A stretch of DNA of 64,000 nucleotides, taken from a virus. Taxonomy: Duplodnaviria; Caudoviricetes. Under the pieces are notes generated by a model that saw only the letters and a program-made list of their open reading frames with translations, had not been told where the DNA came from and ran no database searches. Location: the IMG/VR virus record IMGVR_UViG_3300030330_005136, positions 9,133-73,132 of that record. One strand, given 5' to 3'. The position numbers and the translations under genes are program-made. Shown here piece by piece: positions 30,491-48,424 of the stretch (the stretch's first letter is position 1; each line of letters starts with the position of its first letter).

Positions 30491-30778
30491 GTGATTGAAA
30501 CATATGCCGAATACGGCGCTATTGGTGTTATAATAATGTTATTCGTTGGTATGATTAAGTTTTTACAATCATCTTTGACTAATAAATTAGGAGAAATCGA
30601 AGGTATCTGTATAAAACTTATAGATCGTTGGAATCGTAGTGATGAAACTCGTGACAGAAGACATGAACAGAGTAATTCTGAGAATGATAGAAGACACGAG
30701 CAGATGCTACAGGCGATTAATCGTATCACAGATGACTTAAACTACCTGAAGGGTAGAATAAATAATACACCAAAGTAG
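30491..30778 (+). CDS. Putative holin-like protein (BhlA/UviB-type architecture)
   Basis: A single N-terminal TM (YGAIGVIIMLFVGMIKFL) followed by a charged coiled coil; GTG start with GGAG RBS. Confidence 0.5.
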   Translation: MIETYAEYGAIGVIIMLFVGMIKFLQSSLTNKLGEIEGICIKLIDRWNRSDETRDRRHEQSNSENDRRHEQMLQAINRITDDLNYLKGRINNTPK

Positions 30779-31102
30779 ATGGATAAACCACAGACAGCAA
30801 GAAGTTATAGGGCAACCGTGTTAGACGATAATGCGGTAGTATCTATCAACCTAAAATGGTTGGCTCAGATAGGTGCATTGTTGGCGATGTTAGTCTATGG
30901 TTATTGGAATATGGTCACACGCATAACTAATTTAGAACAAGAGGTGGCTGATGCTGATGCTCAAATAGCAGAATTGGTAGAGAAGCATATTAAAGAAGAA
31001 GAAGTTAGATATACTGAAATGGAAAAACAGCTTAAATTTTATGAAAAGGAATTCAATATAAATCCTCTGAGCTGGGGTAGAAAGAAAAAGAAAAACAGGT
31101 AA
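30779..31102 (+). CDS. Single-pass membrane protein with coiled coil and basic tail
   Basis: WLAQIGALLAMLVYGYW TM; RITNLEQEVADADAQIAEL coil; WGRKKKKNR end. Confidence 0.7.
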   Translation: MDKPQTARSYRATVLDDNAVVSINLKWLAQIGALLAMLVYGYWNMVTRITNLEQEVADADAQIAELVEKHIKEEEVRYTEMEKQLKFYEKEFNINPLSWGRKKKKNR

Positions 31103-31146
31103 CACCCACAAACAAATTGTTACAGTCATCGTATACTTTTGTTACA
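31099..31146. promoter_or_regulatory. Candidate upstream activator sites (TGTTAC repeats)
   Basis: GTAACA (31099-31104) is inverted to TGTTAC (31118-31123); TTGTTACA is directly repeated at 31117 and 31139 (22-bp spacing). Confidence 0.4.
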
Positions 31147-31176: not shown

Positions 31177-31193
31177 TTGGTACAGTTCTTGTA
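31177..31193 (+). promoter_or_regulatory. sigma54 (RpoN)-like -24/-12 promoter upstream of pilin cassette
   Basis: TTGGTACAGTTCTTGTA = TGGTAC-N5-TTGTA versus the consensus TGGCAC-N5-TTGCA, with GG-N10-GT spacing. It also forms the palindrome GTACA-N5-TGTAC. Confidence 0.45.
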
Positions 31194-31226
31194 CTATATA
31201 GGTATAAACTAAATAGGAGAACTGAA

Positions 31227-31853
31227 ATGTTCAAATCAATAATACGATATCTAAAGAGCACTAATGGTAACTCATTAGCTGAATTTGCAGTAACAACTGC
31301 TATGATGGCTACATTGGCTACCACTGCTGCACCTAAATTTTCTGGTGTTGGTGAAGGTGCTAAGGAAAAGAAAACATTAGCTGATATTGACAAGATTGTC
31401 AAATCTGCTAACAACTTTTATAACGCTAAAGTTACCGAAGAAGGTCGTGGAAGATTTCCAGGACAGACAAAGTATGATGCTGCTGTAGGTGGATATGCTT
31501 CTGATTCTTTACTACTTGCTGGTGTAGAAAACTTTACAACTTTTAGCTCTAATGAAGGACAAAATTGGGCTTCTGTATTCGGAACAACTACAGATGGTGC
31601 TAAAGCACCAGTTGGTCATAATATATCTACAGATGAAGATGATGATAAAGATGGATCATATGATGTATATACAGGTGCTGAGGAGTTCTTAAATGAGTTT
31701 GGTGGTAACCCAATCAAGACACCATTTCAGGATGGTCACTACATCTATGCGGTAATCGCTGGTGGTGGAAGTGGTTCATCTTCTTATTCACCCATTCTTT
31801 ATGTTGCTGACTTAGAAAATCCAAGCAACTTTAAAAAGAAATTACAACCATAG
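31227..31853 (+). CDS. Type IV pilin / pseudopilin-like protein 1 (208 aa, non-canonical G|NSLAE site)
   Basis: Basic leader, G|NSLAE with Glu+5, about 20-aa hydrophobic helix ending APKF, GspG-like amphipathic helix and PIKTPFQDGHYIY; TAGGAG RBS. Confidence 0.75.
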   Translation: MFKSIIRYLKSTNGNSLAEFAVTTAMMATLATTAAPKFSGVGEGAKEKKTLADIDKIVKSANNFYNAKVTEEGRGRFPGQTKYDAAVGGYASDSLLLAGVENFTTFSSNEGQNWASVFGTTTDGAKAPVGHNISTDEDDDKDGSYDVYTGAEEFLNEFGGNPIKTPFQDGHYIYAVIAGGGSGSSSYSPILYVADLENPSNFKKKLQP

Positions 31854-31863
31854 GAGAACTAAA

Positions 31864-32289
31864 ATGTTGAACCAGAAAGGATTTACATTAATCGAACTTA
31901 TCATGGTTACAATTATTTTAGGTATCTTAGCTGCTGTTGCCATACCGAGATATATGACAACAGTTACAAAAGCCCATGAGGCTGCTGAAGATGCGGTAAT
32001 TAACTCTATAAAAGCTGGTTTAGAAACTTATGCTGTCGAACAACTAATGGATAATGGTAGGAAATCATGGCCTACAAATCCATTCGATGCTCTAGACACC
32101 AAACCTGCTGGACACACCACAGACACAGATGATGCTGATGTTGATGGAGAGTGGACATACAATACCACTAGTAAGAAGATCACACATCAGAGAAGTGATA
32201 ACACACGTGTGGCTTGGCAATACGATGAGGGAACACAATCAGGCGACAATGCTGCTGTGGGAACTCTAGGATCAAGAGCTAGTCTGTAG
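31864..32289 (+). CDS. Type IV pilin / pseudopilin-like protein 2 (141 aa)
   Basis: Canonical class III signal peptide MLNQKG|FTLIELIMVTIILGILAAVAIPRY. Confidence 0.95.
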   Translation: MLNQKGFTLIELIMVTIILGILAAVAIPRYMTTVTKAHEAAEDAVINSIKAGLETYAVEQLMDNGRKSWPTNPFDALDTKPAGHTTDTDDADVDGEWTYNTTSKKITHQRSDNTRVAWQYDEGTQSGDNAAVGTLGSRASL

Positions 32290-32298
32290 GAGTTAATA

Positions 32299-32727
32299 AT
32301 GAAAAACTCTAACGGATTTACTCTGATAGAGTTGGTTGTAACCATCGCTTTAGTGGGGATATTGCTGGGAACGGCTATCCCCACTTTTCATAGGGTGGTT
32401 GCTGAAACTCAATCCCAAGTAAACATATCAAACATGGAAATAATAAAAGACACATTTCTACAGTATTATTACGACAATCACATGAGTGGTGATCCACATT
32501 TTCCACAAGTTCCATCTGATAGTTTGTTGAATACTACATATCGTCAGACGACCTTGGGTGATGGTAGAACGCCTGATATGTTGTTCAGTGGAGACTTACC
32601 TTACAACAGCAATAAGAAACCATTTTTATACTATTGGGATGATGATTCCTTAACAAAAAGAATTGTTGTAAAGGATAATGATTTAGATAGCCCATCATAT
32701 AATCAAAAGGTAATTGGTGAAATATAA
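32299..32727 (+). CDS. Type IV pilin / pseudopilin-like protein 3 (142 aa)
   Basis: Canonical class III signal peptide MKNSNG|FTLIELVVTIALVGILLGTAIPTF; GspG-like LPYNSNKKPFLY. Confidence 0.95.
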   Translation: MKNSNGFTLIELVVTIALVGILLGTAIPTFHRVVAETQSQVNISNMEIIKDTFLQYYYDNHMSGDPHFPQVPSDSLLNTTYRQTTLGDGRTPDMLFSGDLPYNSNKKPFLYYWDDDSLTKRIVVKDNDLDSPSYNQKVIGEI

Positions 32728-33659: not shown

Positions 33660-34563
33660 TAAAGTTGTAAATCTATTAGAAAGAGCATTAAACAGTAGAG
33701 GTAAGAAACTAACAAAACCAAATGAGTATATGTTTTACTCACCTTTTGTTAATCATTATAAACCAAAGCTACAGATTAATGTCTCTACACAGAAATGGCA
33801 TTGTTGGGTTTCCAACATGGGTGGTCATTCTATATACTCTTTGTTTAAGAAACTTAATGTCAATAGAGAGTTATATGGTGAGCTAAAAGACATCTTTTTC
33901 GTACCTGAGACTACAGATGTAGAGAAGAAAGAAGTTGTTGTTTTGCCGAGGCATTACAAACCATTGTGGGTTAGGTCAAGATCTTTGTACCAAGGACATG
34001 CTCTAAAGTTTTTAACAGATCGTGGTATTACAAAATATGATATTAAAAAATATAAAATAGGTTTTTGCGAGGATGGTTTGTATCAGCACAGAGTGATTGT
34101 ACCAAGTCATGATGAGAATGGTATATTGAATTACTTCGTAGGTAGGTCATACATGGAAAGTGGTATGAAATATAAGAATCCAAATGTATCTAAGGATGTG
34201 GTTGGATTTGATTATCACATAGCCTGGTCAAAACCAATTGTTTTATGTGAGGGTGTGTTTGATGCCATGACTATTCGTAGAAATGCCATACCGATGTTTG
34301 GTAAAAAACCATCAAAAAAATTATTAATGAAGATATTTCAGAAAAGATGTAAGACAATTTATATAGCATTGGATGACGATGCTAGAAAAGAAGCTTACAT
34401 GTTAGGGGAATTTTTTAGTGACTTTGGTATAGATTCTAAGGTTGTGAATCTACCAAAGGATAAAGATCCGAATGACTTGGGATTTGAAAGGATGAGTGCT
34501 CTAATAGAACAGACACTATCCTCAAGTTTTTCAGACACAATACAGGCAAAGTTATATGGGTGA
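33652..34563 (+). CDS. dnaG: DNA primase (TOPRIM) with degenerate Zn-binding domain
   Basis: RVIVPSHD, KYKNP, VLCEGVFDAM, IALDDDA, KDPNDLG. Confidence 0.9.
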   Translation: MSDKVVNLLERALNSRGKKLTKPNEYMFYSPFVNHYKPKLQINVSTQKWHCWVSNMGGHSIYSLFKKLNVNRELYGELKDIFFVPETTDVEKKEVVVLPRHYKPLWVRSRSLYQGHALKFLTDRGITKYDIKKYKIGFCEDGLYQHRVIVPSHDENGILNYFVGRSYMESGMKYKNPNVSKDVVGFDYHIAWSKPIVLCEGVFDAMTIRRNAIPMFGKKPSKKLLMKIFQKRCKTIYIALDDDARKEAYMLGEFFSDFGIDSKVVNLPKDKDPNDLGFERMSALIEQTLSSSFSDTIQAKLYG

Positions 34564-37500
34564 TATAAAAAAGATAGCACACTTAGCTGATATTCATATC
34601 AGAAAACTACATAGATTCAACGAGTACAGAGATGTCTTTGACAATCTGTATAAAAAATTACGAGATATAAAACCTGATTTGATTTACATCGGTGGTGATG
34701 TTGTACATGGAAAATTAGATACATCACCTGAAGAAATCAGAATGGTTGCTGAGTTCTTCTTAAATCTAGCTGATATATCTGATCTGTTAGTGATACCTGG
34801 AAATCATGATTGTAATTTAAATAACAAATCACGAGAGGATGTGCTGTCTCCGATTGTTGATTTGGTTCAACAGATAAACCCAAGAATACACTTTTGGAAG
34901 AAAACAGGTGTGTATGAAATGGGAGGTTGTCATTTTGGTCACCTTTCTGTATTTGACATGACTAAGGATGGTAAACCAAATGCTAAAAATATACCACGAG
35001 CAAAAGACATAGATGGTGATCATAAGATTGGTATTTATCACGGTGGGGTCGGTAACTTCCAAGTTGACACTGGTTTGGTGATGAGTGATGAACATGTAAA
35101 TGTTATTGACTTTGATGGTTATGATATGGTGTTGTTAGGTGATATACATAAGAGACAATTCTTAGATGATAAAGAAACCATAGCATATCCAGGTTCATTG
35201 ATTCAACAGAATTTTGCTGAAGCACCTGAACATGGATTTTTACTATGGGATGTGAAGACACGTAAGTCTGAATTTATACAAGTGGAAAATGAACATGGAT
35301 TTAAAACTGTAATTGTTGAAGATGGTAAGATAAAAAGTCGAATGAGGTTTGTACCCAAGTATGGTAATATAAAGATAAAACATAAAGATACCACTGCCGA
35401 ACAATTAAGATTAATCGAATTAAATCTTCGTAAAAAATATACCGATATAAAATCAATAGTCACAGAAAAAATAGATTCTATAGAAGGTCACTTAAACGAA
35501 AGCAAAACTAAAATATCTATCGAAGATATACATGATTTAAAGGTGCAGAATAAACTAATTGAAAAATTAGCAAAAGTGGAGCAACCAAATATAGATGATA
35601 AGACTTTACAAAGAATATTTGATATAAATGAATTAACAAATTCTTCTATTGGGATGAAAAATGAATTACCAAGAAATGTAGATTGGAAGCTAAAATACAT
35701 TGAGTTTGACAACATGTTTAGCTATGGTAAAAACAATAGAATAGATTTTACAAAACTAAATGGTGTGGTTGGTGTGGTTGCTCCAAATCACAGTGGTAAA
35801 TCAGCATTGATTGACATTATAGCTTATACATTATTTGATGTATGTAGTAGAACTATCAGAGCTGTTGAAGTATTGAATAATGAATCTAAATATTTTGAGG
35901 TAAAATTATCTCTAGAGGTAAATGGTGAGGATTATATTATTCATCGAGTTGGTAATTTAAAGATCAAGACAAAACGAGCTACTGGTGAAGTTCGTAAATT
36001 ATGTCCTGTTTCTGTAAAGTTTTATATGGAAGAGAATGGTGAGTTGATTGACCTTAGTGGAGCAGCTCGTAATAATTCACAGTATGGCAGTGGTACAAAT
36101 GAAGAGATAAGAAAGATACTCGGAACATTTGATGATTTTATTTTAACATCATTATCATTACAGAACAATGGTCAGAACTTTATTGATAAGAAACAGGCTG
36201 AAAGAAAAAAAATTCTGAGTCAGTTCATGGGTATTGATTTGTTTGATAAGTTGTTTGATGTTGCAAAACATGATGTAGCTGATGAACGAGCATATTTACG
36301 AAAGGTAAAAGACAAGGATGTATTCGGTCAACTATCTAAATTACAAAAAGAATTACAAGGGTATGAAGAATCAAAAGAAAAGCTTGATAAAGAAGTAGAA
36401 CCATTTGAAGTTGAGATAAATGAGTTAGAGGAACAGATTGACAACCTAAAATCAAAACTAAAGTATGTTCCGAGTGGTGTGGATGAAGTTGATGAAAATA
36501 TCGAGATAGAAAAGGAACAAGAGCTGGAAAGACAGCAACAACTATTGGAATCCGAAGAAGAATATAGAGAAGATATTCGACCATTGTATAATAATATCTA
36601 CAACAAAATAAAAGAATTTGACGAAGATGAGTTAGAGAATAATTATAAGAAATACAAAAAAACAAAAGAAGATTTGACAAAGATTGAGGCTGATGTCAAT
36701 GTAAAAGAAACTCAGATAAAACATTTAAAGGAATCTCTAGAAGAAGCAAAAGAACATGAGTTCGATGAGGATTGTGAGTATTGTGTGAAGAATAGTCAAT
36801 GGCATATTGAGAAAACAAAATCATTAACAAAAGAGATAACAGATTGTAAATTAGATCTACAAAAAATCTTATCTGATAAACATAATCTAGAAAAGGATAT
36901 TGAAAGTTTTGGTGATATAAATCGTGATAGGTCTAGATATCAAGAGTTAAAAGAAGATTTAAAACAAGTTGAAAATGATGCATACAAAACACAGGCTAAG
37001 ATGAAAGAATTAGAAGCATTGGTGTTGAGTTTAGAAAAAGATTTGGAGAAGATTTACGAACAAAATAAATTATACGAGGAGTATCAATCTGCTCTAGAGT
37101 TCAATGATAAGATCAATGATAAGATAGAAGTATTACAATCAACATTGGATAAAAGTAAGAGTTCATATGATATCGTTATCAGAGGTATACAGACTATAGA
37201 AAATCACATATTGGTAAATAAAACAAACAAAAAGAATTTAGATAGCGAAATCAAAGATTTAGTGGATGCCGAACAAAAGGTATTGGATTATGAACTATAT
37301 CTTAGATTAGTCAGTTCAGATGGTATTCCAAGATTGATTATTAATGATGCCCTACCTGTCATTGAGAATGAAGTGAATACTGTATTGGATCATATGATGG
37401 CTGGATTTCATTTAGGCATAACAAACGAAGATAAGAATATAAATCTATATATACGGTACGACAATCAAGAATGGCCATTATCTCTCTCATCGGGTATGGA

Positions 37501-37762
37501 AAAGTTCGTATCTTCTCTCGCACTTCGTGTTGGTTTGATCAATGTTTCTAACCTACCAAGTCCTAATTTTCTCGTTATAGATGAGGGTTTTGGTACATTG
37601 GATACTGATAATCTCTCAAACATGAAGGGTGCTTTTGATTACTTGAAGACAAGATTTGATTCGGTTTTTATAATCTCTCATTTAGATACCATAAAAGACT
37701 TTATGGATTATCTATTACCCATCAATAAAACAGACAAACACTCAAATGTGACCTATATTTGA
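34556..37762 (+). CDS. sbcD-sbcC: Fused Mre11/SbcD nuclease - Rad50/SbcC ATPase (T4 gp47-gp46-like), 1068 aa
   Basis: Phosphoesterase motifs DIH, GDVVH, GNHD, YHG, GDIH, YPGS; Walker A APNHSGKS; CEYC hook; signature LSSGMEK; Walker B LVIDEGFGTLD; ISH. Confidence 0.95.
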   Translation: MGDIKKIAHLADIHIRKLHRFNEYRDVFDNLYKKLRDIKPDLIYIGGDVVHGKLDTSPEEIRMVAEFFLNLADISDLLVIPGNHDCNLNNKSREDVLSPIVDLVQQINPRIHFWKKTGVYEMGGCHFGHLSVFDMTKDGKPNAKNIPRAKDIDGDHKIGIYHGGVGNFQVDTGLVMSDEHVNVIDFDGYDMVLLGDIHKRQFLDDKETIAYPGSLIQQNFAEAPEHGFLLWDVKTRKSEFIQVENEHGFKTVIVEDGKIKSRMRFVPKYGNIKIKHKDTTAEQLRLIELNLRKKYTDIKSIVTEKIDSIEGHLNESKTKISIEDIHDLKVQNKLIEKLAKVEQPNIDDKTLQRIFDINELTNSSIGMKNELPRNVDWKLKYIEFDNMFSYGKNNRIDFTKLNGVVGVVAPNHSGKSALIDIIAYTLFDVCSRTIRAVEVLNNESKYFEVKLSLEVNGEDYIIHRVGNLKIKTKRATGEVRKLCPVSVKFYMEENGELIDLSGAARNNSQYGSGTNEEIRKILGTFDDFILTSLSLQNNGQNFIDKKQAERKKILSQFMGIDLFDKLFDVAKHDVADERAYLRKVKDKDVFGQLSKLQKELQGYEESKEKLDKEVEPFEVEINELEEQIDNLKSKLKYVPSGVDEVDENIEIEKEQELERQQQLLESEEEYREDIRPLYNNIYNKIKEFDEDELENNYKKYKKTKEDLTKIEADVNVKETQIKHLKESLEEAKEHEFDEDCEYCVKNSQWHIEKTKSLTKEITDCKLDLQKILSDKHNLEKDIESFGDINRDRSRYQELKEDLKQVENDAYKTQAKMKELEALVLSLEKDLEKIYEQNKLYEEYQSALEFNDKINDKIEVLQSTLDKSKSSYDIVIRGIQTIENHILVNKTNKKNLDSEIKDLVDAEQKVLDYELYLRLVSSDGIPRLIINDALPVIENEVNTVLDHMMAGFHLGITNEDKNINLYIRYDNQEWPLSLSSGMEKFVSSLALRVGLINVSNLPSPNFLVIDEGFGTLDTDNLSNMKGAFDYLKTRFDSVFIISHLDTIKDFMDYLLPINKTDKHSNVTYI

Positions 37763-37806: not shown

Positions 37807-40800
37807 ATGCCAATACAAGATAATTATACACAGCGACTAGGACTGGCAGAACTAGATGTTTTTTTAGATACGCCGGACAATAGTAATAGATATTTTAATA
37901 TCATCAACTTACCACAAATTGCTGGGTATGGTAAATATTCCTTTCAAATATCCTATAACGATCCTGATGATACTGATTTATTATTAAAACAAGGTTCTGG
38001 TATTTTATTCGAATTTGTTGATGCCAATGGTGAAACTATATTTTCAGAATTATCAGATATACCAGATGCCAGTGGTGCCGCATCGGGTTATTTTTGGATA
38101 AAAAAAGATCCACTCTGGCTAGCTGGCGAAATAGCTGATGGGCCGGCTACTTTATATATTGTAGGGGAACTAGACAATGTACCTGAAGAGTTCGAAGGTA
38201 CATATAATGTTAGGACTGCCTTTACTTTCGATATAAGAAAATCACAACCAAATATTTCGAGAATTTTATTTCATGATGTTCCGGCATTAGAGCAAAGTTC
38301 TAGTATTAATGGTCAGATTCAAGAATTTGATAGAGGTAGTTCAACTTTTGCCAGAGGATATATTGAAGTCAGTGCCTCTCATATGGAAACTCATGGTGGT
38401 CAGGTAAACTTCATTGAGTTATCTTATCTAGAATCTGGTAGTAGGACAGAAGAATTTACACCATTGGCAGAGTATCCGTTACGTGGTTCGTCATCAAGAT
38501 ATGAATTGGATGATACTGGTTCTATTGATGGATTGAATCCGATATCACATGTATTCAGAATGCCTGTCCCTCGTGATTTTCGTAGAGACAGTGAAGTAAA
38601 ATTTAAATTAAAATTTTTAGATGCTAATAAATCACCAGCAAAATATTATGATGAGATTAAAAATGATCAAGTTATAGAAATAACATCTTCTTTTATAACA
38701 GTAAGTGGAACGCCTTTTATTATTGAAAATGAAGATAATTTACTCAAGGGTTCGATGTTTACTGGTCAAGCTGTTGGCAAGGGATTTGAAACATCCGGTA
38801 AAAGCAGTGCATTTATGAAAACAGTAGATTACACTGGTTTCAAATCCGCTAGTCTAGGTATAGGTAGTCCTGGTGTAATGTTCTTTAGTGGTTCTGTGTT
38901 GACATCGAGTGGTGACAATTATCAAGGGGTTGGATTAGAATTATTTGCTAACACAGAAAGTTTTTTAAGATTTAGATCAGACCCATCAGAATTAGATATC
39001 AAAACAAAAGCATTTTTTGTAGGTTCAGAAACAACTCAATTTATCAGTGCATCTGGTGGAACAATAGAGATAAGTTCTAGTAATTTTCATTTAGAACCTA
39101 GTGGTGATGTCACCATGACCGGAACAATTGAAGCCGCTGATGGTAAAATAGGTGGGTTTCATATATCAGAGTCTAGAATAAATTCTGAAAATGAAAAAAT
39201 AATATTTAAATCAAGTGGACAGATATCAGCTTCTTCATTGTTGTTAGCATCGGGTTCATTTATTGTAGATCCTGATAATCTTTCAAGATTTGGTCAAGAT
39301 GGTTTTCAAAGTTTTGTCATGGCTGAAAATACTGGTGTAATCATACAGACAAGTAATTTTAATCTTAACACTGCTAGATTTATTATCAGTTCAAGTGATG
39401 TTGGTGTCATGGCTGTTGGTTCAACACCGCCTGTAGCTCATAACAGTGGAACTGGCTTTTATGTAGATGGTGATGGTAATTTTCTTGTAGGAAAATCCAC
39501 AGGTCCTAGATTACAATTCGATGGTTTTCAAACTACAATAAGTTCATCTAATTTCTTTCTTGGTTCAGATGCTCAATTTGTAAGTGGTAGTAACGGGAAT
39601 ATTGAGATAAGTTCTAGTAATTTTCATCTAGATGCTGCTGGAAATGTTATAATGGCTGGAACTATAACAGCAAATGCTGGAACCATAGGAGGGTTTAATA
39701 TAACTAATAATGCCTTATCCTCTGATAATTTTTTCATCAGTGGTGCCGCCACAGGTGCTGAATTATTTATATCATCATCTGGTTTTTCTGTAGATGCTCA
39801 AGGTGTGGTTAGTGCGTCTGATTTATCATTACAAGGTGGAGATGTTGGTGGTTTGTCTGTTGCTGAGGGAACTGTATCTGTTGGTGAAATACTAAAACTA
39901 AAAGATAGTGGACAGATTACAGGTTCACAAGTTTTGTTTACTGGTGGAAAAATCAGTGGTTCTGCTTTAGATATAATTGTTCCTAAATTCTTTTTAGGTA
40001 GTGAAGAACAATTTGTAAGTGGTTCAAACGGTAATATTGAAATAAGTAGTTCTGATTTTCATCTAGATAAAGATGGAAGTGTAAACATGTCAGGTACTAT
40101 TACAGCAACTGCTGGAGCAATTGGTGGATTTGGTATTAGCTCAAATGCTATAAGTAGTTCAAATAATAATTTAATACTAAAAGATAGTGGTCAAATAACT
40201 GGTTCAACAGCATTATTTACTGGTGGAAAAATTGCTGGATGGACTATAAGTGGTACAACTTTAGTTGGAAATAATGCGACACTTGATGGTGCTGGTTCTG
40301 CTTTATTTAAATCCGATGCGGGTCCTGATACAGATAATAGTGCTCCTTTTGATGAAGCACGAAATGAATTTTACATAGATTTTTCTCCATCCGATCAAAG
40401 TAACACACGAAACTTTTTTGTAAAGTTTGGTCCTAATTTTATGGTGGATAGTGATGGTATATTGATAGCCAGTGGTGCTACTTTTGCTGGAACTATAACT
40501 GCCAGTGCAGGTTTGATTGGGGGATTTGTAACAGACAGTTCATCTTTTCATGATAATAGCAATAATATTTTTATAAGTGGTAGTCCAAAGATAGGTGGAA
40601 ATCATCATCCATCTTTTATGTTTATATCAAGCTCAAACTTTAATGTAAAACAAAGTGGGGATATAACAGGATCATCTGCTCTATTTGATGGTATTATAAA
40701 TGTTACAGGAACAGGTCAGATTGCTGGATTTGGTATAACCCAAACTGCTATTTCAAGCTCAAACGATAAACTGATATTAAAATCGAGTGGTCAGATTACT

Positions 40801-43800
40801 GGTTCTGATGTTTTATTTAGTGGCGGTAAGATTGGTGGTTTTACTTTAGGAACAAATACATTTACAGCAACAAATTTTGAACTTGATCCGAGTGGAAAGA
40901 GGATAACACTTGGTAGTGGAAATAGTATTTTTATTGCTGATGGTGACGAAGGAATACAATTAGGTCATGCTACATTTGCTGATGCTCCTTTTAGTGTTAC
41001 GACTGCAGGTGTGTTAAAGGCTACAAGTGGAACGATTGGTGGATTTACATTAAGTACAAACGAATTAACTGCTACTAACTTTGAATTAAATCCAAGTCAA
41101 AAAAGAATTACATTAGGAAGTAGTAATGATATCTTTATTGCTGATGGTGATGAAGGTATTCAGTTAGGTCATGCTACATTTAATAGTGCTCCATTTAGTG
41201 TTACTAAAGCTGGATTCTTACATGCTGCCGCTGGTAGGATAGGTGGTTTTGGTATAAGTTCAAATTCGATTACCAGTTCTAATGATAATTTAATATTAAA
41301 GGATAGTGGACAAATAACAGGATCTACAGTTCTGTTTACTGGTGGAAAGATAGGTGGTTTTACAATCGATGCTGATGAAATTAAATCTACAAATCTATTA
41401 TTAGATTCTAATAATGAAAAGATAACTGTTGGTAGTGCAAACGCCATTACAATACAAGGTGGTGGCACAGATAATTTTATTGTGATGGGAAGTAAAACTG
41501 CTTTTGCCCAAACATCCACTGCTGGTGTGATATTGGGTATGGATAATAATGTCCCATCCTTTGATCTAACTAGAAATTCTACAAATTATGTTAGGTTTGA
41601 TACATCGACTGGTGTTGATATTAAAACCGATACATTCAAATTAGATACAGCAACATTAGACATAGATTCATCAACAAGTAGAATACAAGTTGTGGATGGT
41701 TCTTCAAATGAGGTTGTAAGATTAGGTGAAATATCCGACAGTGCTTCAGATTTATTTGGTTTAAAGGTTTACGATGGAAGTGGCACTGCTGATGCCAACA
41801 CATTAGTAAAACTTGGTGGTGAAGGTAATACCATTGGTGGTTGGACAATTACAAATGATCAGATAAGATCCCTAAATCTTGTTATACATTCAAGTGGTAG
41901 ATTAGAAACTGCTGATTTCGCCAGTGGTGTTAAGGGGTGGAGGATATCTTCTGAAGGTAATGGTGAAGCTGAATTTGAAAATGCTACAATTCGTGGAACT
42001 CTTTCAACTGCCGTATTTGAAAAAGAAACTGTAAACGCCGTAGGTGGTCAGTTGTATGTTGCCAACTCAACAGCACTTACAGGATCAGGTCAGATATCTG
42101 CAAGTTTTGACACAATGAGTGTCGTTAATGTAAGCGGATTTGCACAAGGTGAAATATTAAGTTTAAAGAAAGTAAGTGATACGGGTTTTACCACAGAATA
42201 TGTTTTAGTCAATAGTTCTTCTAGAGACGATAAATCAAGTGATACAAATTTTTCTGGTAAATTAAATGTGACTCGTGGATACGGATCAGGTGTTACTGGC
42301 GATAGTGGTTCGTTAGGTGGTTCTCCTAACAATGCTCAATCCTATGAACCTGGTCAAGTAATAGTATCAACCGGTAAAGTTGGAACTGGTTACATAAGAT
42401 TAAATGCTAATCCAAATGATCAAGCCACACCTTTCATGGATATTGTAGAAAGAACTGGTAGTGGAATATATGATATAGAACTAAAAACAAGGGTGGGAGA
42501 TCTTAGTGGTTTAAGTAGTGGTTTACTATTTGGAGAATCAAATCCAGGATTTGGTATCTTTACTGGTAATGGTTTTTTCAGTGGGGGAATAACTGCTACA
42601 ACTGGTTCATTTACAGGTGCTGTTCACATTAACACCTCTGCTTCTGAGATAATGAAACTCGGTACGAATGTTAGTGGAACTGATGATGGTATCTTTGTAA
42701 ATAACAATAACTTTCTTTTCACTGATGGTCGGTTTAAGACAGGTAATGCAACCAACTTTATTTCACATGATGGTGCTGGAGCAGTAGAAATATCATCACA
42801 AAATTTTACTCTAAAGGGTGGAACAAAATTATTAATGACTTCTGAAAGTTTAGCCTTTGATACTTCAAATGCTTCAACTGCTACGAGAACTGCTGGAACT
42901 GGTGTTTTTATGGATGTCGATGGTAATTTTAGAGTTGGTAATGCCAGTGGTAATAGACTTACATTTGCAGGCTCATCATTAGAATTAGTAACTACTGATC
43001 TTAATATAGATACTTCTACATTTGATGTATCTACTGATAATGGTGGAAAGATTGCTATGGGAGCTACACCACCAACAAGTATAACCAGTGGAACTGGTAT
43101 TTTTATGAGTGGTAGTGGTGAGTTCTTAGCTGGAAATGCCAGTGGAAATCACATAAAATTTGATGGAACGAATGTTCAAGTTGCCGGTCAAATAACAATT
43201 TCTGCTGGTTCTACATCAGAAGTTGATTTTGGTGCTGGTGCAGCTGCTTCTGCAAGTGCTGCTTCAGCAAGTGCTGCCACTGCTCAATCCTCTGCAAGTG
43301 CAGCACAAACTTTAGCAAGTGAAGCATCGGCATCGGCTGCCGTAGCGTCTAGTTCAGCAGCGACTGCGACTGCTGCTGCCTCGACTGCTCAATCTGCTAT
43401 TGATACTATGGAAACTCAAGTTGTATTAACCAACGAGGGGATGTCATTAAGAGCTGTTAATGATGCAGGAAACCCCAATTTAAATGGACAGGATGTGGTT
43501 CAGGTTGGGACAACTACAAAGTTTTTTGATGGTGTGGATGATACCGATGCCAATCAAAAACTTAGATTAAACACCGATGGTGTGTTTGCTTTTGCCAACA
43601 CCACACAATCATTTGCGAGATTTTTTAGTGAGGGTGTTCAGATAGTATCGGGTGGAGTTGAAAGAGCTAAATTTGCTGGTACAACCACAATAGGTAATAC
43701 TGCTTTTGAACATGTTGAGATAACAAGTGCTTCTTTAAAACTAAAAGGTGGGGAAAACGGAAGCATAACTAGATTATCCATGGATGCTGATGGTATGCAA

Positions 43801-46800
43801 ATTGGTTCAGTATCAAATGGTATAACTCTAAATGCAAGTGGTGACGCTACATTTAATGGTGCGATTACGATATCACCAAGTGATTTACCTGATGGAACTG
43901 TTAGTGGTTCAGCTCAGTTAGCCGATGCTATCAGTGGTTCTGCAAATCAAATATCAGCATCTGCTGCTGCTCAAGCAACACAAGTAGTCTTAGACTCAAA
44001 CGGAATGTCTCTGAAGAGTCAAGACACAAGTAAGACATTAGCTAGTTTTGGAACAACGGTTACAATTGGTGAAAATGCTGATGATAAATCAAGAGTTTTT
44101 ATAGATAATGATTCTGTTGATCTTATCGTAGATTCAGGTGGAACAGATACGACTTTTGCTTCATTTGGTGCTACAACTACTGTTGGTAATGCTAGTGCTG
44201 AACATGTAAGTATAGATAGTGATTCTGTTGATATCATACAAGATGCTAACAATAAAGCCGTGGTAAATGCTAGTGGATTGACAATTACACAAGGGGGTAA
44301 CAATGTTGCGACTTTTGGTTCAACTGCTAGAATGGGACAGACATCAGCAGAACATATTTTAGTTGATTCAACAGGATTATTATTAAAAGATAACACAGAT
44401 GTTATTGGCAAATTTGTTCAAGGTGGTGCTACACTAGGTAAAACCGGTGGGGCTCATATTTCTGCTTCTACAACTGATGTAAGTATTATTAGAAATAATA
44501 ATAATAAAGCAATTGTTGATGCTGATGGTTTAACTATAACACAAAGTGGAGCTGGAGTTGCTAAATTTGCTTCTACAACAACTATAGGAGAGACTTCTAC
44601 TGAACATGTAGAAATTACATCTACATCATTTAAATTAAAAGATGGTTCAACAGATAGATTGATTATGAATTCTGATGGTATTAGTATTGGAAATCAATTC
44701 TCTGTAGATTCGGATGGTGATGCCACATTCGGTGGAACACTTACTATCGGCAATATAGTTTCGAGTTCTGCTCAACTTGCTGATGCTATTAGTGGTTCAT
44801 CAAATGCTTTCTCTGCTTCAGCTGCGGCTAGTATAGCTCAGACAGCAGTCGATTCTGCTTCAGTTGCTTCTGCTGTACAAATAACCAGTGATGGATTAAA
44901 TATTCTAAGAGCTGATAATGGAAGTGAACTTGCTTCTTATGGTGCGACCACAACAATAGGAAGTACAAGTGCAGAACATATATCAATTAGTAGTGATGCC
45001 ATTGAAATAAAAACCAATGCAAATACCACAGTATTATCTGCTTCATCTGCTGGATTAGATATGGCTGGTACGATTAAAGCCAGTGGTGGTACAATCGGTG
45101 GTTTTAATATTGGAACTGATTTAGATTCTAGTGCAGGAACATTAAAACTCAAAGGTGCTACAGGACAAATAACTGCTTCAGATGCTCAAATAACAGGTAA
45201 GATAATTGCTACTACTGGTACAATTGGTGGTTTCAATATTGGAAGTGATTTGGGATCAAGTGGTGGAACATTAAATTTAAAAGGTAGTTCTGGTCAAATC
45301 ACAGGTTCTAATGTATTATTCAGTGGTGGGGATATTGGTGGATTCATACTCTCGGACGACAAATTTATAGGTCAGATATCAAATGCTAAAACATTCACTA
45401 TCGACAGTGGTCAAAGCGCTGATTTACAGTATGATGGTAATGATGCCTCAGGAATAATATATGGACCCAAGAGTTCTCATGATCTAGGTACTGGTGTGAA
45501 TTTTACTGGTAGTGCTTGGGTTATGTCTGATGCAGGTGGAGCAAATGAAGGTATATTTTTTAGAGCAGGTGTCAAAGATACATTTGTTAAATTATCAACC
45601 ACCGGTGGTGAGGACAATGGTGTATTAGCAATAAGTTCATCAAATTTTTCGATAGACAACAGTGGTAATGTTACGATGGCTGGAACTGTTACTGCCGATG
45701 GTGGTTCTATAGGTGGATTTACCATCAATGGTAGTCAATTAACAGGAAGTTCAGGTGCGATTCTTGCTACTGCTGCAAGTGGTGATAGAGCCGTATTTGA
45801 TGGAACAAATAATGACTTGAGATTTTATGAATCTGGTAAAGGTGGTACATCAACATCATTGAAATTAGGAAAATTCGGACAGTTAACATTTGGAACTGCT
45901 GGTAGTGTTGTAAATCAATATGGTATAATTCTAAGTGGTTCTAGTTTTAATGTGAGTAAATTTAGTGTAACTAATCCTGATGTAACTGAGAACTTAGATT
46001 TTACTGGTGTTCCGAATACTTTTCAAACCAATATTTCTAATATAAGTTCAACACTTGATATGGGATCAGCTAGAGACGTGTTCAGAGGAAGAGCTGGAGC
46101 CGTCTTCACTGCAAAAACTGGTCTAGCATCAGACCTAACCACAACAGGTTTGCTTGCTGGTATGATGGGACAAATAGAAGATGACAATTTACGTTGGGAC
46201 ATGTCTGCTGGTGGTTTTTTCGTAAGTTCTGAAGATAGAGCTCTAATAGATGCTGATGAAGGTGGTGGTGTTGGAGATGGAAGTTGGGCTCTGGCAACAG
46301 TTGGTAGAGTCATGATGACTGGTAGTAATGGTTCTGGTTTCAGTGCTGCTTCCATGCCACCGACATTAACAGTTGGTGGACCTGGTGGTAAAAGTATTCA
46401 AGCCGATGGATTAGTGGTTATGAAAGCAGATGCAACTGTTGATGGAGCATTATCAGTTGGTGGAACTATAAGTGGAAGTCTGATTCGTAGTTCTGGCGAT
46501 GTTGTTGCTTTCCATTCATCAGATAAGAGACTAAAAGATAATATAAGAACAATAGAAGAACCTATATATAAATTAAGACAACTAAAGGGTGTTGAATATG
46601 AGTGGAATAATAAACAAGATACATATCCAAGTGGTTCATTAGATAGTGGTATTATAGCACAGGATGTACAAAAAGTTCTACCACAATTAGTAAAGGAAAA
46701 AGAAGATGGGTATCTCGGTGTTCGACATGATAGATTAGTCGGTCTATTAGTTGAAGCCATAAAAGACCAACAAGATCAAATAGATGAGATGAAAGAACAA

Positions 46801-46830
46801 ATCAAGGAGTTGAAAGATGGCAGTTCCTAG
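37807..46830 (+). CDS. Giant tail fibre (3007 aa) with C-terminal intramolecular chaperone (peptidase S74)
   Basis: Many G(T/K)IGGF and ITGS-x-LF-x-GG repeats; C-terminal SSDKRLKDNI...LKGVEYEWN...GIIAQDVQKVLPQLV...LLVEAIKD. Confidence 0.9.
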   Translation: MPIQDNYTQRLGLAELDVFLDTPDNSNRYFNIINLPQIAGYGKYSFQISYNDPDDTDLLLKQGSGILFEFVDANGETIFSELSDIPDASGAASGYFWIKKDPLWLAGEIADGPATLYIVGELDNVPEEFEGTYNVRTAFTFDIRKSQPNISRILFHDVPALEQSSSINGQIQEFDRGSSTFARGYIEVSASHMETHGGQVNFIELSYLESGSRTEEFTPLAEYPLRGSSSRYELDDTGSIDGLNPISHVFRMPVPRDFRRDSEVKFKLKFLDANKSPAKYYDEIKNDQVIEITSSFITVSGTPFIIENEDNLLKGSMFTGQAVGKGFETSGKSSAFMKTVDYTGFKSASLGIGSPGVMFFSGSVLTSSGDNYQGVGLELFANTESFLRFRSDPSELDIKTKAFFVGSETTQFISASGGTIEISSSNFHLEPSGDVTMTGTIEAADGKIGGFHISESRINSENEKIIFKSSGQISASSLLLASGSFIVDPDNLSRFGQDGFQSFVMAENTGVIIQTSNFNLNTARFIISSSDVGVMAVGSTPPVAHNSGTGFYVDGDGNFLVGKSTGPRLQFDGFQTTISSSNFFLGSDAQFVSGSNGNIEISSSNFHLDAAGNVIMAGTITANAGTIGGFNITNNALSSDNFFISGAATGAELFISSSGFSVDAQGVVSASDLSLQGGDVGGLSVAEGTVSVGEILKLKDSGQITGSQVLFTGGKISGSALDIIVPKFFLGSEEQFVSGSNGNIEISSSDFHLDKDGSVNMSGTITATAGAIGGFGISSNAISSSNNNLILKDSGQITGSTALFTGGKIAGWTISGTTLVGNNATLDGAGSALFKSDAGPDTDNSAPFDEARNEFYIDFSPSDQSNTRNFFVKFGPNFMVDSDGILIASGATFAGTITASAGLIGGFVTDSSSFHDNSNNIFISGSPKIGGNHHPSFMFISSSNFNVKQSGDITGSSALFDGIINVTGTGQIAGFGITQTAISSSNDKLILKSSGQITGSDVLFSGGKIGGFTLGTNTFTATNFELDPSGKRITLGSGNSIFIADGDEGIQLGHATFADAPFSVTTAGVLKATSGTIGGFTLSTNELTATNFELNPSQKRITLGSSNDIFIADGDEGIQLGHATFNSAPFSVTKAGFLHAAAGRIGGFGISSNSITSSNDNLILKDSGQITGSTVLFTGGKIGGFTIDADEIKSTNLLLDSNNEKITVGSANAITIQGGGTDNFIVMGSKTAFAQTSTAGVILGMDNNVPSFDLTRNSTNYVRFDTSTGVDIKTDTFKLDTATLDIDSSTSRIQVVDGSSNEVVRLGEISDSASDLFGLKVYDGSGTADANTLVKLGGEGNTIGGWTITNDQIRSLNLVIHSSGRLETADFASGVKGWRISSEGNGEAEFENATIRGTLSTAVFEKETVNAVGGQLYVANSTALTGSGQISASFDTMSVVNVSGFAQGEILSLKKVSDTGFTTEYVLVNSSSRDDKSSDTNFSGKLNVTRGYGSGVTGDSGSLGGSPNNAQSYEPGQVIVSTGKVGTGYIRLNANPNDQATPFMDIVERTGSGIYDIELKTRVGDLSGLSSGLLFGESNPGFGIFTGNGFFSGGITATTGSFTGAVHINTSASEIMKLGTNVSGTDDGIFVNNNNFLFTDGRFKTGNATNFISHDGAGAVEISSQNFTLKGGTKLLMTSESLAFDTSNASTATRTAGTGVFMDVDGNFRVGNASGNRLTFAGSSLELVTTDLNIDTSTFDVSTDNGGKIAMGATPPTSITSGTGIFMSGSGEFLAGNASGNHIKFDGTNVQVAGQITISAGSTSEVDFGAGAAASASAASASAATAQSSASAAQTLASEASASAAVASSSAATATAAASTAQSAIDTMETQVVLTNEGMSLRAVNDAGNPNLNGQDVVQVGTTTKFFDGVDDTDANQKLRLNTDGVFAFANTTQSFARFFSEGVQIVSGGVERAKFAGTTTIGNTAFEHVEITSASLKLKGGENGSITRLSMDADGMQIGSVSNGITLNASGDATFNGAITISPSDLPDGTVSGSAQLADAISGSANQISASAAAQATQVVLDSNGMSLKSQDTSKTLASFGTTVTIGENADDKSRVFIDNDSVDLIVDSGGTDTTFASFGATTTVGNASAEHVSIDSDSVDIIQDANNKAVVNASGLTITQGGNNVATFGSTARMGQTSAEHILVDSTGLLLKDNTDVIGKFVQGGATLGKTGGAHISASTTDVSIIRNNNNKAIVDADGLTITQSGAGVAKFASTTTIGETSTEHVEITSTSFKLKDGSTDRLIMNSDGISIGNQFSVDSDGDATFGGTLTIGNIVSSSAQLADAISGSSNAFSASAAASIAQTAVDSASVASAVQITSDGLNILRADNGSELASYGATTTIGSTSAEHISISSDAIEIKTNANTTVLSASSAGLDMAGTIKASGGTIGGFNIGTDLDSSAGTLKLKGATGQITASDAQITGKIIATTGTIGGFNIGSDLGSSGGTLNLKGSSGQITGSNVLFSGGDIGGFILSDDKFIGQISNAKTFTIDSGQSADLQYDGNDASGIIYGPKSSHDLGTGVNFTGSAWVMSDAGGANEGIFFRAGVKDTFVKLSTTGGEDNGVLAISSSNFSIDNSGNVTMAGTVTADGGSIGGFTINGSQLTGSSGAILATAASGDRAVFDGTNNDLRFYESGKGGTSTSLKLGKFGQLTFGTAGSVVNQYGIILSGSSFNVSKFSVTNPDVTENLDFTGVPNTFQTNISNISSTLDMGSARDVFRGRAGAVFTAKTGLASDLTTTGLLAGMMGQIEDDNLRWDMSAGGFFVSSEDRALIDADEGGGVGDGSWALATVGRVMMTGSNGSGFSAASMPPTLTVGGPGGKSIQADGLVVMKADATVDGALSVGGTISGSLIRSSGDVVAFHSSDKRLKDNIRTIEEPIYKLRQLKGVEYEWNNKQDTYPSGSLDSGIIAQDVQKVLPQLVKEKEDGYLGVRHDRLVGLLVEAIKDQQDQIDEMKEQIKELKDGSS
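40831..41238 (+). repeat. Tandem 204-nt (68-aa) duplication within giant fibre
   Basis: IGGFTL...TATNFEL.PS.KRITLGS.N.IFIADGDEGIQLGHATF..APFSVT.AG occurs twice; IGGF starts at 40831, 41035 and 41239. Confidence 0.9.
43231..43398 (+). repeat. Ala/Ser low-complexity stretch (56 aa) within giant fibre
   Basis: GAGAAASASAASASAATAQSSASAAQTLASEASASAAVASSSAATATAAASTAQSA; locally GC-rich. Confidence 0.9.
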
Positions 46831-48424
46831 TAGTGGTGAATTATCTTTATTAGGTATAAAAAGAGAATTGGAAAATAATAATTATAATTTAAGTTTCAGT
46901 TACACGAATATCTCTTTAGAGGATTTATCCGATGGTACGGTAGCTACGATAAATACATCAAATAATTCTTCGGATAGACCCGATGGTTCTGCTCCTCATG
47001 CTATGTCTGAGTTTTATAATTATGACCACGATTTGTCTGGTCTTGGAGATGCGAGTGGACTTGCTGTTCAATCTCAAACGACCACTGCTGTAACTTTTGT
47101 ATATACCGAAGGGGCTAATTCAGATCGTACAATAGTAAAATTAACTAATTATAATGGTAGTACAAGTGGCTTACCCGCAACACTGAATATAAATGGATTC
47201 GGTGGTAGTTTTCCCAATCAATTTCAAAATGTTGATGGTAGTGGTACAAGCACTTTTACAGTAACAGGAGGAACTAGCACTTTTTTCTTGGGTGGAACTG
47301 CTGCAAATGTCACTTTATCTGCTAATGATTTTGTTAAGGTAAAGGTTCAGTCAAGTGATGGTAGTAGTACAGGAACTCTAACTGGTGAAGTTACTGGATT
47401 TACTTTACCAGGTGTACCAACAAGTTTAGGTACAACCAATATTAGTTCTCATGCTATGACCATAGGTTGGACTGCTCCAACGGGTGGGGTAAATGCTTCT
47501 AATGGATACAGATATTATCATGGAACTAACTCCACTGCTACAAATAATTCAGCCGTTGATACTGGTAATACGTCAGTAGCACTTACTGGTTTAGATGCAA
47601 ACACAACTTATTATTGGACTGTTCAAGCAAAAGGGGATGGTGGTGATTTCGGTTCAACTGCTACTCAAGTTGCCATATCAACCGCGCCAGATTCAGTTGG
47701 AACTATTACTGCCATACCTAATATAAATAGTATAACTCTTAGTTGGTCATCGACTCCAGCTGGAACAAGTGAATATAGAGTTTATTTCGGAACGAATTCT
47801 ACAGTAACAAGTAATGCTACATCTACTGTAGCTTCTTCCAAAACTGCTGCTACCTTTACAAGTTTAACTCAATCAACAACACATTACTTTGGTGTTCAAC
47901 CTCGAAATTCAGATGGAAATTATGGTGATATTGTAACGGGTAATGCAACCACACTTGCACCAACAACTTATACTCATCATGTGGGATCGACTTCAAGAGG
48001 TTTTAGTGCTATAGCTCTAACAACTTATACGACAACTCATACAGGTGTGGGTTCAGGCACTTCATCTCTAAGTGACATGATTAGAGTTACGATTGCGAAT
48101 GGTAATGCCGATGCAGTAACAATCACCACGGATAATCCTACTCCTGCTCTTGGAACTTTTGAATTTCTTGCTTCTGCCACTGAGGGTGATGTGGTAGGTC
48201 CTAGCCCATCAGGTACATTTCAAGCTTTAACCCATAGTTTTAATGTAGGAAATTGGAGTCAAGGTGGTGTTACTGCTTATTTCTTCAGATTAAAATGGAA
48301 TCATGGTACACTGCCTGGTTTTGGAACGCAACAAACATCAACTACAGTACGAATCACCACTACAAATACAGGTGCGTCACCAGTATCTGGTTTTCTTGAT
48401 CTAGTAATAAAGGCTTCAGCATAA
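46817..48424 (+). CDS. Putative fibre-tip adhesin with fibronectin type III domains (535 aa)
   Basis: MAVPSSGELSLLGIKREL...APHAMSEFY N-terminal module; FN3 motifs IGWTAP...YRYY...LTGLDANTTYYWTVQA and LSWS...YRVY...LTQSTTHYFGVQPRN. Confidence 0.75.
   Translation: MAVPSSGELSLLGIKRELENNNYNLSFSYTNISLEDLSDGTVATINTSNNSSDRPDGSAPHAMSEFYNYDHDLSGLGDASGLAVQSQTTTAVTFVYTEGANSDRTIVKLTNYNGSTSGLPATLNINGFGGSFPNQFQNVDGSGTSTFTVTGGTSTFFLGGTAANVTLSANDFVKVKVQSSDGSSTGTLTGEVTGFTLPGVPTSLGTTNISSHAMTIGWTAPTGGVNASNGYRYYHGTNSTATNNSAVDTGNTSVALTGLDANTTYYWTVQAKGDGGDFGSTATQVAISTAPDSVGTITAIPNINSITLSWSSTPAGTSEYRVYFGTNSTVTSNATSTVASSKTAATFTSLTQSTTHYFGVQPRNSDGNYGDIVTGNATTLAPTTYTHHVGSTSRGFSAIALTTYTTTHTGVGSGTSSLSDMIRVTIANGNADAVTITTDNPTPALGTFEFLASATEGDVVGPSPSGTFQALTHSFNVGNWSQGGVTAYFFRLKWNHGTLPGFGTQQTSTTVRITTTNTGASPVSGFLDLVIKASA

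Follow-up and report, generated by a model that had tools for sequence, protein, structure and literature searches.

Why should a marine tailed phage carry three type IV pilin genes in a row, and which cell would assemble their products? The question is raised by a 64,000-nt stretch of DNA (hereafter the window), part of the 73-kb IMG/VR record IMGVR_UViG_3300030330_005136 (Duplodnaviria; Caudoviricetes), in which three adjacent genes, here named P1, P2 and P3, encode prepilin-like proteins. Our analysis indicates that this cassette is likely a phage copy of the subunit part of a pilus locus of SAR406 (Marinimicrobia) bacteria that resembles the locus of the mannose-sensitive haemagglutinin (MSHA) pilus, that it is equipped with a putative host-type sigma-54 promoter, and that the host would assemble its products, the most likely benefit being re-surfacing of a phage receptor. 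This reading draws on homology, a gene order in common, conservation of the promoter element, purifying selection and the finding that the phage lacks assembly machinery. In the dark and low-oxygen ocean, SAR406/Marinimicrobia rank with the most abundant uncultured bacteria, and we know of no phage-host pair that has been cultured for them.

A first-pass annotation of the window, made from the sequence alone, had described three tandem prepilin genes on the + strand between positions 31227 and 32727, and direct reading of the sequence located the three open reading frames (ORFs) there (Table 1). Their signals, with the slash marking the predicted cleavage point, read KSTNG/NSLAEF in P1, NQKG/FTLIEL in P2 and NSNG/FTLIEL in P3. 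Each protein has a short basic leader ending in Gly, a Glu at position +5 and about 20 hydrophobic residues, as is typical of class III signals. The ribosome-binding sites had been described as strong, and TAGGAG is indeed found ahead of the P1, P2 and P3 starts; with the full AGGAG present at only about nine of the 44 ORFs of the window, the sites of the cassette rank among the strongest present. Furthermore, the TAG stop codons of P1 (31851-31853) and P2 (32287-32289) form the first three bases of the next TAGGAG, as had been noted, and these overlaps suggest coupled translation. The reported lack of a C-terminal disulfide was borne out as well: the three proteins contain zero cysteines and do not have the C-terminal disulfide-bonded D-region of type IVa pilins of the PilA/PilE kind. 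No terminator-like site was found around the cassette.

Table 1. Features of the pilin cassette and its upstream region (window coordinates).
Feature	Position	Strand	Description
Candidate activator (enhancer-binding protein) half-sites	31099..31146	+	GTAACA at about 31101, TTGTTACA at 31117 and 31139; direct repeat; putative binding sites
Sigma-54-type -24/-12 element	31178..31192	+	TGGTAC-N5-TTGT (GG-N10-GT); conserved position upstream of P1; putative function
P1 ribosome-binding site	31214..31219	+	TAGGAG, read from the sequence
P1	31227..31853	+	208-aa prepilin; probable major subunit; predicted cleavage G14/N15, Glu+5; variable region at about residues 89-150
P2	31864..32289	+	141-aa type IV pilin, G6/F7TLIE; orthologue of the first FTLIE pilin of the host locus
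P3	32299..32727	+	142-aa type IV pilin, G6/F7TLIE; orthologue of the second minor pilin of the host locus

The N_methyl (PF07963) hidden Markov model (HMM), a check proposed in the first-pass annotation, recognized P2 (32.1 bits, E-value of 7.5e-8) and P3 (34.1 bits, 1.7e-8) above its cut-off of 21.2 bits, but gave no match to P1. P2 and P3 also pass TIGR02532. The suggestion that the proteins are GspG/PulG-like held weakly for P2 (48.3 bits) and P3 (28.6 bits), but none reached the TIGR01710 cut-off of 88.85 bits and P1 did not match that model. P2 and P3 likewise remained below threshold for the GspG, ComGC and PilA models, with matches mostly across the N-terminal helix. The P2 profile matched many solved pilins, with E-values down to 1e-13. 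The AlphaFold2 (AF2) model of P3 had a predicted local distance difference test score (pLDDT) of 89, and the first 19 matches obtained with VIA-align were all pilins or pseudopilins (Z of 4.7-6.5). Gly-1 and Glu+5 are invariant in the alignments of P2 and P3.

P1 belongs to a large family. At E≤1e-3, 3741 proteins were found among 90% clusters; at 50% identity, the family falls into 502 clusters. Among 34 diverse members, Gly-1, Glu+5 and the SLAEFA motif are nearly invariant; the other conserved blocks are EGRGRFPGQ and a C-terminal SPFQDGHYIY...PG...VAD.ENP, and the middle is variable. Just four of these 34 members gave even a weak family-HMM match. A profile built from the family matched geopilin (1e-5), MshA (6e-4) and PilA (1e-3) among solved structures, and pilins made up ten of its 11 matches at E≤1. 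The AF2 model of P1 (pLDDT of 76) consists of an N-terminal helix (residues 17-72) and a small beta domain, and in both the P1 and P3 models a long N-terminal helix lies on a small beta sheet, the arrangement expected of the pilin fold. Foldseek found nothing in the PDB at E≤0.001 with the P1 model; the first 13 VIA-align matches were all pilins or pseudopilins (Z of 4.4-5.6). We conclude that P1, P2 and P3 are all type IV pilin-like proteins. P1 represents a divergent family, missed by standard HMMs, whose members seen to date come only from Marinimicrobia and their putative phages. The major pilin is probably P1, with P2 and P3 as probable minor or priming pilins. A Tad/Flp pilin or TadE/TadF identity of P1 (PF04964, PF07811), whose motif G/NSLAEF resembles, was rejected, as no Pfam match was obtained at E≤1; furthermore, the peptidase encoded beside the cellular P1 genes is PilD-type, with an A24_N_bact domain, and not TadV-type.

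A scan of cellular DNA covering one genome per prokaryote species revealed 40 loci with P1 relatives. Nearly all the named ones belong to Marinimicrobia/Neomarinimicrobiota (SAR406; Fidelibacterota in GTDB), including single-cell genomes. No other protein of the window matched any of these 40 loci, which is why we regard them as cellular. In these loci, one to four tandem P1 paralogues are followed by a P2 orthologue and then a P3 orthologue, the same order as in the phage. Host and phage proteins align end to end, with identities of up to 73% for P1, up to 72% for P2 (Marinimicrobia locus L088) and 34-43% for P3. Directly upstream of the cellular P1 genes lie genes for a response regulator, a PilD-type peptidase (A24_N_bact and Peptidase_A24), a T2SSE ATPase with an MshEN domain, a sigma-54 activator and a T2SSF (PilC) platform protein. 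Downstream are more N_methyl pilins, so that the host locus contains at least six pilin genes, together with a large LamG or 550-aa protein and AAA_22, PilO-like and T2SSB-like proteins. By its gene content, the cellular locus resembles an MSHA-type pilus locus. The link with type II secretion put forward in the first-pass annotation was not supported: no protein reached the GspG threshold, and the cellular counterpart looks MSHA-type and not like a type II secretion system. Each Marinimicrobia genome also carries a second PilB/PilD set and a PilT-like ATPase.

In five Marinimicrobia loci (L088, L090, L092, L100 and L101), up to four tandem P1 paralogues stand before the minor pilins, most with their own sigma-54 promoter; they look like an array of alternative major pilins. 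Four contigs from metagenome-assembled genomes (MAGs) labelled Methanobacteriota, Balneolaceae or Crocinitomicaceae (L101, L093, L125 and L115) carry a Marinimicrobia-type pilin locus and are therefore probably mis-binned. One of them, the 2.7-kb L115 from a bacterial MAG, contains phage-type genes, groups with phage P1 and is probably a phage contig.

In a quick maximum-likelihood tree built from 135 P1 sequences, phage P1 branched within the range of the cellular sequences, its neighbour being the host paralogue beside P2. One phage clade contains the cellular P1 of the single amplified genome (SAG) AM-382-M06. Several independent acquisitions could not be retained as an explanation: the best tree requires at least three changes between phage and cell, but a single clade of the phage sequences is not rejected by an approximately unbiased (AU) test (p = 0.24). 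Phylogeny had been expected to predict the host, and it did so, as the cellular relatives of P1 are nearly all Marinimicrobia/SAR406.

The cassette recurs widely in phages. A scan of IMG/VR revealed 80 loci with P1 at 47-89% identity. Wherever the contig continues, P1 is followed by an FTLIE pilin, usually with a P3 orthologue after it. In several of the 80 loci, the tail-region proteins of 343 and 277 aa are still encoded upstream, or the zincin-like protein, RuvC and primase downstream. The exact P1 sequence was found on 43 contigs, the longest of 168 kb. This recurrence with shared phage flanks indicates that the cassette is not a chimera, the same arrangement being present in dozens of independently assembled contigs from different samples. 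Frames were intact in all cassette copies examined. Pairwise comparisons with relatives gave ratios of nonsynonymous to synonymous substitution rates (dN/dS) of 0.13-0.28 for P1, 0.06-0.13 for P2 and 0.10-0.26 for P3; pseudogenization, which would bring dN/dS near 1, was not seen, and the values of 0.06-0.28 point to purifying selection. Many relatives have a fourth pilin, a 131-aa P2 paralogue, and some have more. As relatives carry at least four pilin genes, the window holds a reduced three-gene version, and the cassette cannot be called complete, as had been claimed, since the host locus has at least six pilin genes and a large LamG protein.

Selection is uneven along P1. Residues 89-150 evolve with an omega of 0.22-0.85, vs 0.06-0.18 in the flanking parts, and probably form a variable, exposed region. 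Divergence is also uneven within the cassette. Compared with its closest relative (L003:3625-5122), the window shares 89% identity in P1, with a synonymous divergence (dS) of 0.56, vs 99% in P2 and 96% in P3, with a dS of 0.15-0.21. This roughly threefold higher synonymous divergence of P1 suggests a mosaic cassette in which P1 alleles would be exchanged among phages by recombination.

Is the cassette also under host-type control? On the + strand, the -24/-12 motif has one match in the window, and a single match is not above chance; the weight for a promoter comes from its recurrence at one position ahead of 142 of the 170 P1 copies of host and phage. Most cellular P1 paralogues carry TGGCAC-N5-TTGC, the sigma-54 consensus, 35-100 nt upstream. 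Phage P1 genes carry TGGTAC-N5-TTGT at the same distance, and just 12 phage copies are without it, some of which are truncated where the contig ends. When twelve phage upstream regions were aligned, the -24/-12 block was the sole conserved island, extending into ACTATATAGGTAA. Such conservation argues for a functional element. When checked against the sigma-54 consensus (GG at -24 and GC at -12, 10 nt apart), the window keeps GG but has GT at -12; the orthologous host positions are canonical GC, and some host copies also have TTGT.

At host loci, no hexamers are more enriched than GTTACA and GTAACA within 130 nt upstream of the motif: they occur in 59-61% of regions vs a background of 9-10%, and GTTACA occurs at 65% of phage loci vs 11%. 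In the window, the two copies of the repeated half-site are spaced by 22 nt. From these sequence features we infer that host sigma-54 and a host pilus activator would drive the cassette. Two other candidates were rejected. The ACTATATAGGTA block is not a general phage promoter, as it has one exact copy in the window and near-matches at chance level. A phage-encoded sigma-54 activator was not retained either: the PF00158 matches of 22-27 bits found in four of five phage records are 379-405-aa MoxR-like AAA+ proteins with no GAFTGA motif, and the sole Sigma54_activat match in the phage, one such MoxR-like AAA+ protein, lies outside the window. A 379-aa MoxR-like AAA+ ATPase encoded upstream of the window (L083:58-1197, G000:C1) is kept in related phages; it matches Sigma54_activat and T2SSE weakly and is without a GAFTGA motif.

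The first-pass annotation had found no prepilin peptidase, assembly ATPase, platform protein or secretin in the window. HMM searches extended this to the 73-kb record, from which Peptidase_A24, true T2SSE, T2SSF and secretin are absent; T2SSE gave only weak, sub-threshold cross-matches to AAA+ proteins. In related phage records of 109-132 kb (59-72% complete), A24 and true T2SSE were absent from five records and T2SSF and secretin from four, all records examined being fragments. A stand-alone MshEN domain (PF05157) had no match in the 73-kb record and four relatives. As prepilins are phage-borne and assembly genes were not found in the phage records, the pilins would depend on the host, in line with the earlier proposal. 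The cassette therefore has the genomic profile of a phage replacement of a host pilus component: it is phage-encoded, has homology to pilus subunits and comes with no assembly genes, and homology points to the host.

Taken as a working model, these observations suggest the following course of events. During infection, P1, P2 and P3 would be transcribed as one message by the RNA polymerase of the host, acting with sigma-54 and the host's pilus activator. The prepilins would insert into the inner membrane, where host PilD would cleave them after Gly14 in P1 and Gly6 in P2 and P3. The MshE-like ATPase and PilC platform of the host could then polymerize the phage pilins into a pilus with a phage-specified surface. 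The genes for PilD, an ATPase and PilC beside the cellular homologues lend such processing and polymerization indirect support. With a re-surfaced pilus, infected cells may escape attachment by rival phages that bind pili or by progeny of the phage itself, as for the prophage protein P-FimU. Receptor re-surfacing, with superinfection exclusion, is our leading guess for the benefit; we favor it because P1 residues 89-150 evolve fast, because P1 alleles appear to be exchanged, because hosts carry tandem P1 arrays and because P-FimU provides a precedent.

Other readings of the cassette deserve to be weighed against this one. The phage might go further and specify a filament of its own, made of its own major and priming minor pilins and switched on through host sigma-54 and its activator, thereby reprogramming the SAR406 surface, the P1 loop and the host P1 arrays reflecting an arms race over the pilus. 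We hold this only tentatively; if true, abundant ocean phages would alter SAR406 surface behavior, be it phage exclusion, particle attachment or DNA capture. In the same way that cyanophage psbA sustains photosynthesis, the genes could instead sustain a host function, the phage supplying fresh subunits to maintain or boost the host pilus for particle attachment, DNA or nutrient capture, or buoyancy, and not to exclude phages. The N- and C-terminal assembly parts of P1 are indeed near those of the host (82-83% identity, omega of about 0.07), the host-type promoter and activator half-sites are kept, so that expression would follow the host pilus signal, and a very abundant marine phage group has kept the cassette (3741 proteins; 502 clusters). 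In addition, the viral pilins of SNJ2 favor the formation of biofilms by their host and its motility (PMC12426801). However, the fast divergence of the exposed middle of P1, which looks as if it had been swapped between close phages, fits an arms race better than maintenance alone, and we consider this main rival of receptor re-surfacing unlikely.

A further possibility is that the phage pilins act as poison subunits that jam or cap the host machine and abolish pili or a type II-like secretion, loss of the receptor then blocking superinfection. The window has three of the host's at least six pilin genes and no LamG tip protein; phage inhibitors of pilus assembly such as Tip and PfsE are well known (cited in PMC12426801), and truncated PilA-like phage proteins have been proposed to act as blockers (PMC12952977). 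Yet P1, P2 and P3 are full length and align end to end with their host orthologues, and purifying selection acts on the assembly helix as well as on the globular domain. A blocker would need neither a major and two cognate minor pilins in host order nor a fast-evolving exposed loop, and we regard this explanation as improbable. Least credible of all is that cellular DNA was wrongly joined to a viral contig, or that the genes were captured recently and have no function, as might be thought of an IMG/VR record that is a fragment (about 40% complete) and whose pilins have close cellular homologues. Recurrence and selection refute it: the genes occur on dozens of independent contigs, and the exact P1 on 43 contigs, with intact frames, dN/dS of 0.06-0.28 and a GC content (38%) close to the 35.5% of the window.

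Several points weigh against the reading of the cassette as a host-assembled, host-controlled copy of the SAR406 pilin genes that re-surfaces the receptor. The dependence on transcription factors, the cleavage, the assembly and the benefit are steps that we infer. P1 has no match in Pfam, PHROG or NCBIfam, and its residue at +1 is Asn. The structural Z scores of the P1 and P3 models are modest (4.4-6.5), within a range that the tool calls non-decisive. Assignment of P1 as the major subunit is a prediction, and by sequence P2 is the more GspG/PilA-like protein. In the promoter, the -12 element of the window is GT, and both C-to-T changes, at -23 and -12, are fixed in nearly all phage copies; together with the additional phage-specific block ACTATATAGGTAA, these fixed changes leave room for a phage-specific or phage-adapted mode of transcription. 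As the phage record is about 40% complete, genes that we did not see could lie elsewhere. Finally, the host link is one of gene homology in MAGs and SAGs and not of demonstrated infection.

The surroundings of the cassette are those of a phage genome. The 73-kb record, estimated to be about 40% complete, has all its genes on one strand, and scans with Pfam- and PHROG-type libraries identified flanking genes of phage type, including a baseplate wedge protein, a tail fibre, RuvC and a primase. The nearest cultured relatives of the primase are those of Flavobacterium phage immuto and Microcystis phage Mel-JY01, at about 38-41% identity. Among INPHARED phages, there was zero DNA match to the query and zero protein match to P1, and the matches to P2 were limited to the N-terminal helices of scattered phage and prophage pilins. 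No sign of lysogeny was found within the window.

Two small membrane or coiled-coil ORFs (30491-31102) lie upstream of P1. A lysis-module function was rejected for them, the match to an Rz-like spanin being weak only, and they are not members of the cassette, since they are present in this record only and in none of the related loci compared. In the closest related phage, the product of the gene directly upstream of P1 (L003:2866-3507) is a membrane protein of 214 aa that combines a Popeye (POPDC)-like part with a cyclic-nucleotide-binding domain (cNMP_binding, 2e-15). The window is without this gene and the two genes before it, and has the two small ORFs instead.

Further features of the phage were observed on both sides. 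Downstream of the cassette, positions 34556-37762 encode one 1068-aa protein that fuses an SbcD-like Metallophos nuclease domain to an SbcC-like AAA_23 domain. A 3007-aa protein with a C-terminal Peptidase_S74 (endosialidase chaperone) domain, most likely a giant tail fibre, is encoded at 37807-46830, and an fn3-containing protein follows at 46817-48424. Upstream of the window (G000:C1), a 123-aa secreted protein (L083:1828-2199) bears the motif AVAGVRGAEAEDEAL. An ORF of about 200 aa that follows the pilins in many related phages (e.g. L010:7875-8483) has a homologous C-terminal part; the 123-aa protein is not a pilin and has no counterpart in host loci. A 246-aa protein encoded in the same upstream region (L083:6751-7491, G000:C1) has a Walker A motif and looks PhoH-like by eye only.

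What the cassette means extends beyond this record. On sequence grounds, it strongly links large marine phages of a very abundant group to the SAR406 phylum, and it exposes a pilin family, P1, that standard HMMs miss. It suggests that phages can carry a whole subunit operon with an enhancer-dependent promoter, beyond a single pilus gene, in which case host signalling would set the timing of phage pilin expression. If the pilins re-surface the pilus, competition between phages at a pilus receptor would drive evolution in the open ocean, as it does in Pseudomonas. The earlier reports of SAR406 viruses that we found in the literature concern SAG-associated contigs only (PMC4611503).

How does the cassette compare with known systems? 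At the level of the locus, the Marinimicrobia counterpart shares with the msh loci of Vibrio and Shewanella an MshEN ATPase, a PilC/MshG-like platform, an AAA_22 protein (MshM/ExeA-like), many pilin genes and a large MshQ-like LamG protein, and the P1 profile matches MshA (structure 9lab). Unlike MSHA loci, it includes its own PilD and sigma-54 activator, and the likeness is one of locus type. The P1 signal, G/(N/Q/S/A)SLAEF, which N_methyl does not detect, also differs from the MSHA type. As to regulation, RpoN and PilS-PilR control the major pilin gene in Pseudomonas aeruginosa and Myxococcus xanthus. Here too, a putative promoter of the GG-N10-GC type lies directly 5' of the first pilin gene, with repeated upstream half-sites and a sigma-54 activator in the host locus, whereas the phage element has T for C at -23 and -12, an added conserved downstream block and no phage activator.

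The first-pass annotation regarded the cassette as the best candidate for an undescribed system, a view that gives way before published precedents. P-FimU, encoded by F10-like prophages of Pseudomonas aeruginosa, becomes part of the pilus and blocks phages that bind the tip (Sztanko et al., Cell Rep 2026, PMC12952977), and the same study describes P-PilA in Xylella prophages and PilA-like genes in four groups of non-temperate phages. Our cassette shares with P-FimU and P-PilA a phage homologue of a host pilus subunit, the absence of phage assembly machinery and a high diversity of phage copies. In contrast, these are single genes of phages of cultured Proteobacteria, whereas the cassette has three genes (at least four in relatives) in host order behind a sigma-54-type promoter; compared with P-FimU, it is carried by uncultured phages of an uncultured phylum, and its incorporation into pili and role in defence are predictions. 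In Natrinema sp. J7, the host secretion machinery builds the PilA1 and PilA2 pilins of the SNJ2 provirus into the surface filaments that dominate (Xiang et al., Cell Rep 2025, PMC12426801). PilA1 and PilA2 are likewise tandem virus-encoded type IV pilins, in that case acquired from the host. Unlike SNJ2, an archaeal temperate pleolipovirus whose pilins are the receptor for a second virus, the present system belongs to a bacterial tailed phage and has bacterial FTLIE-type signals. What is new here is a multi-gene operon of probable major and minor pilins in host order, its putative host-type enhancer-dependent promoter, the P1 family and the link to SAR406.

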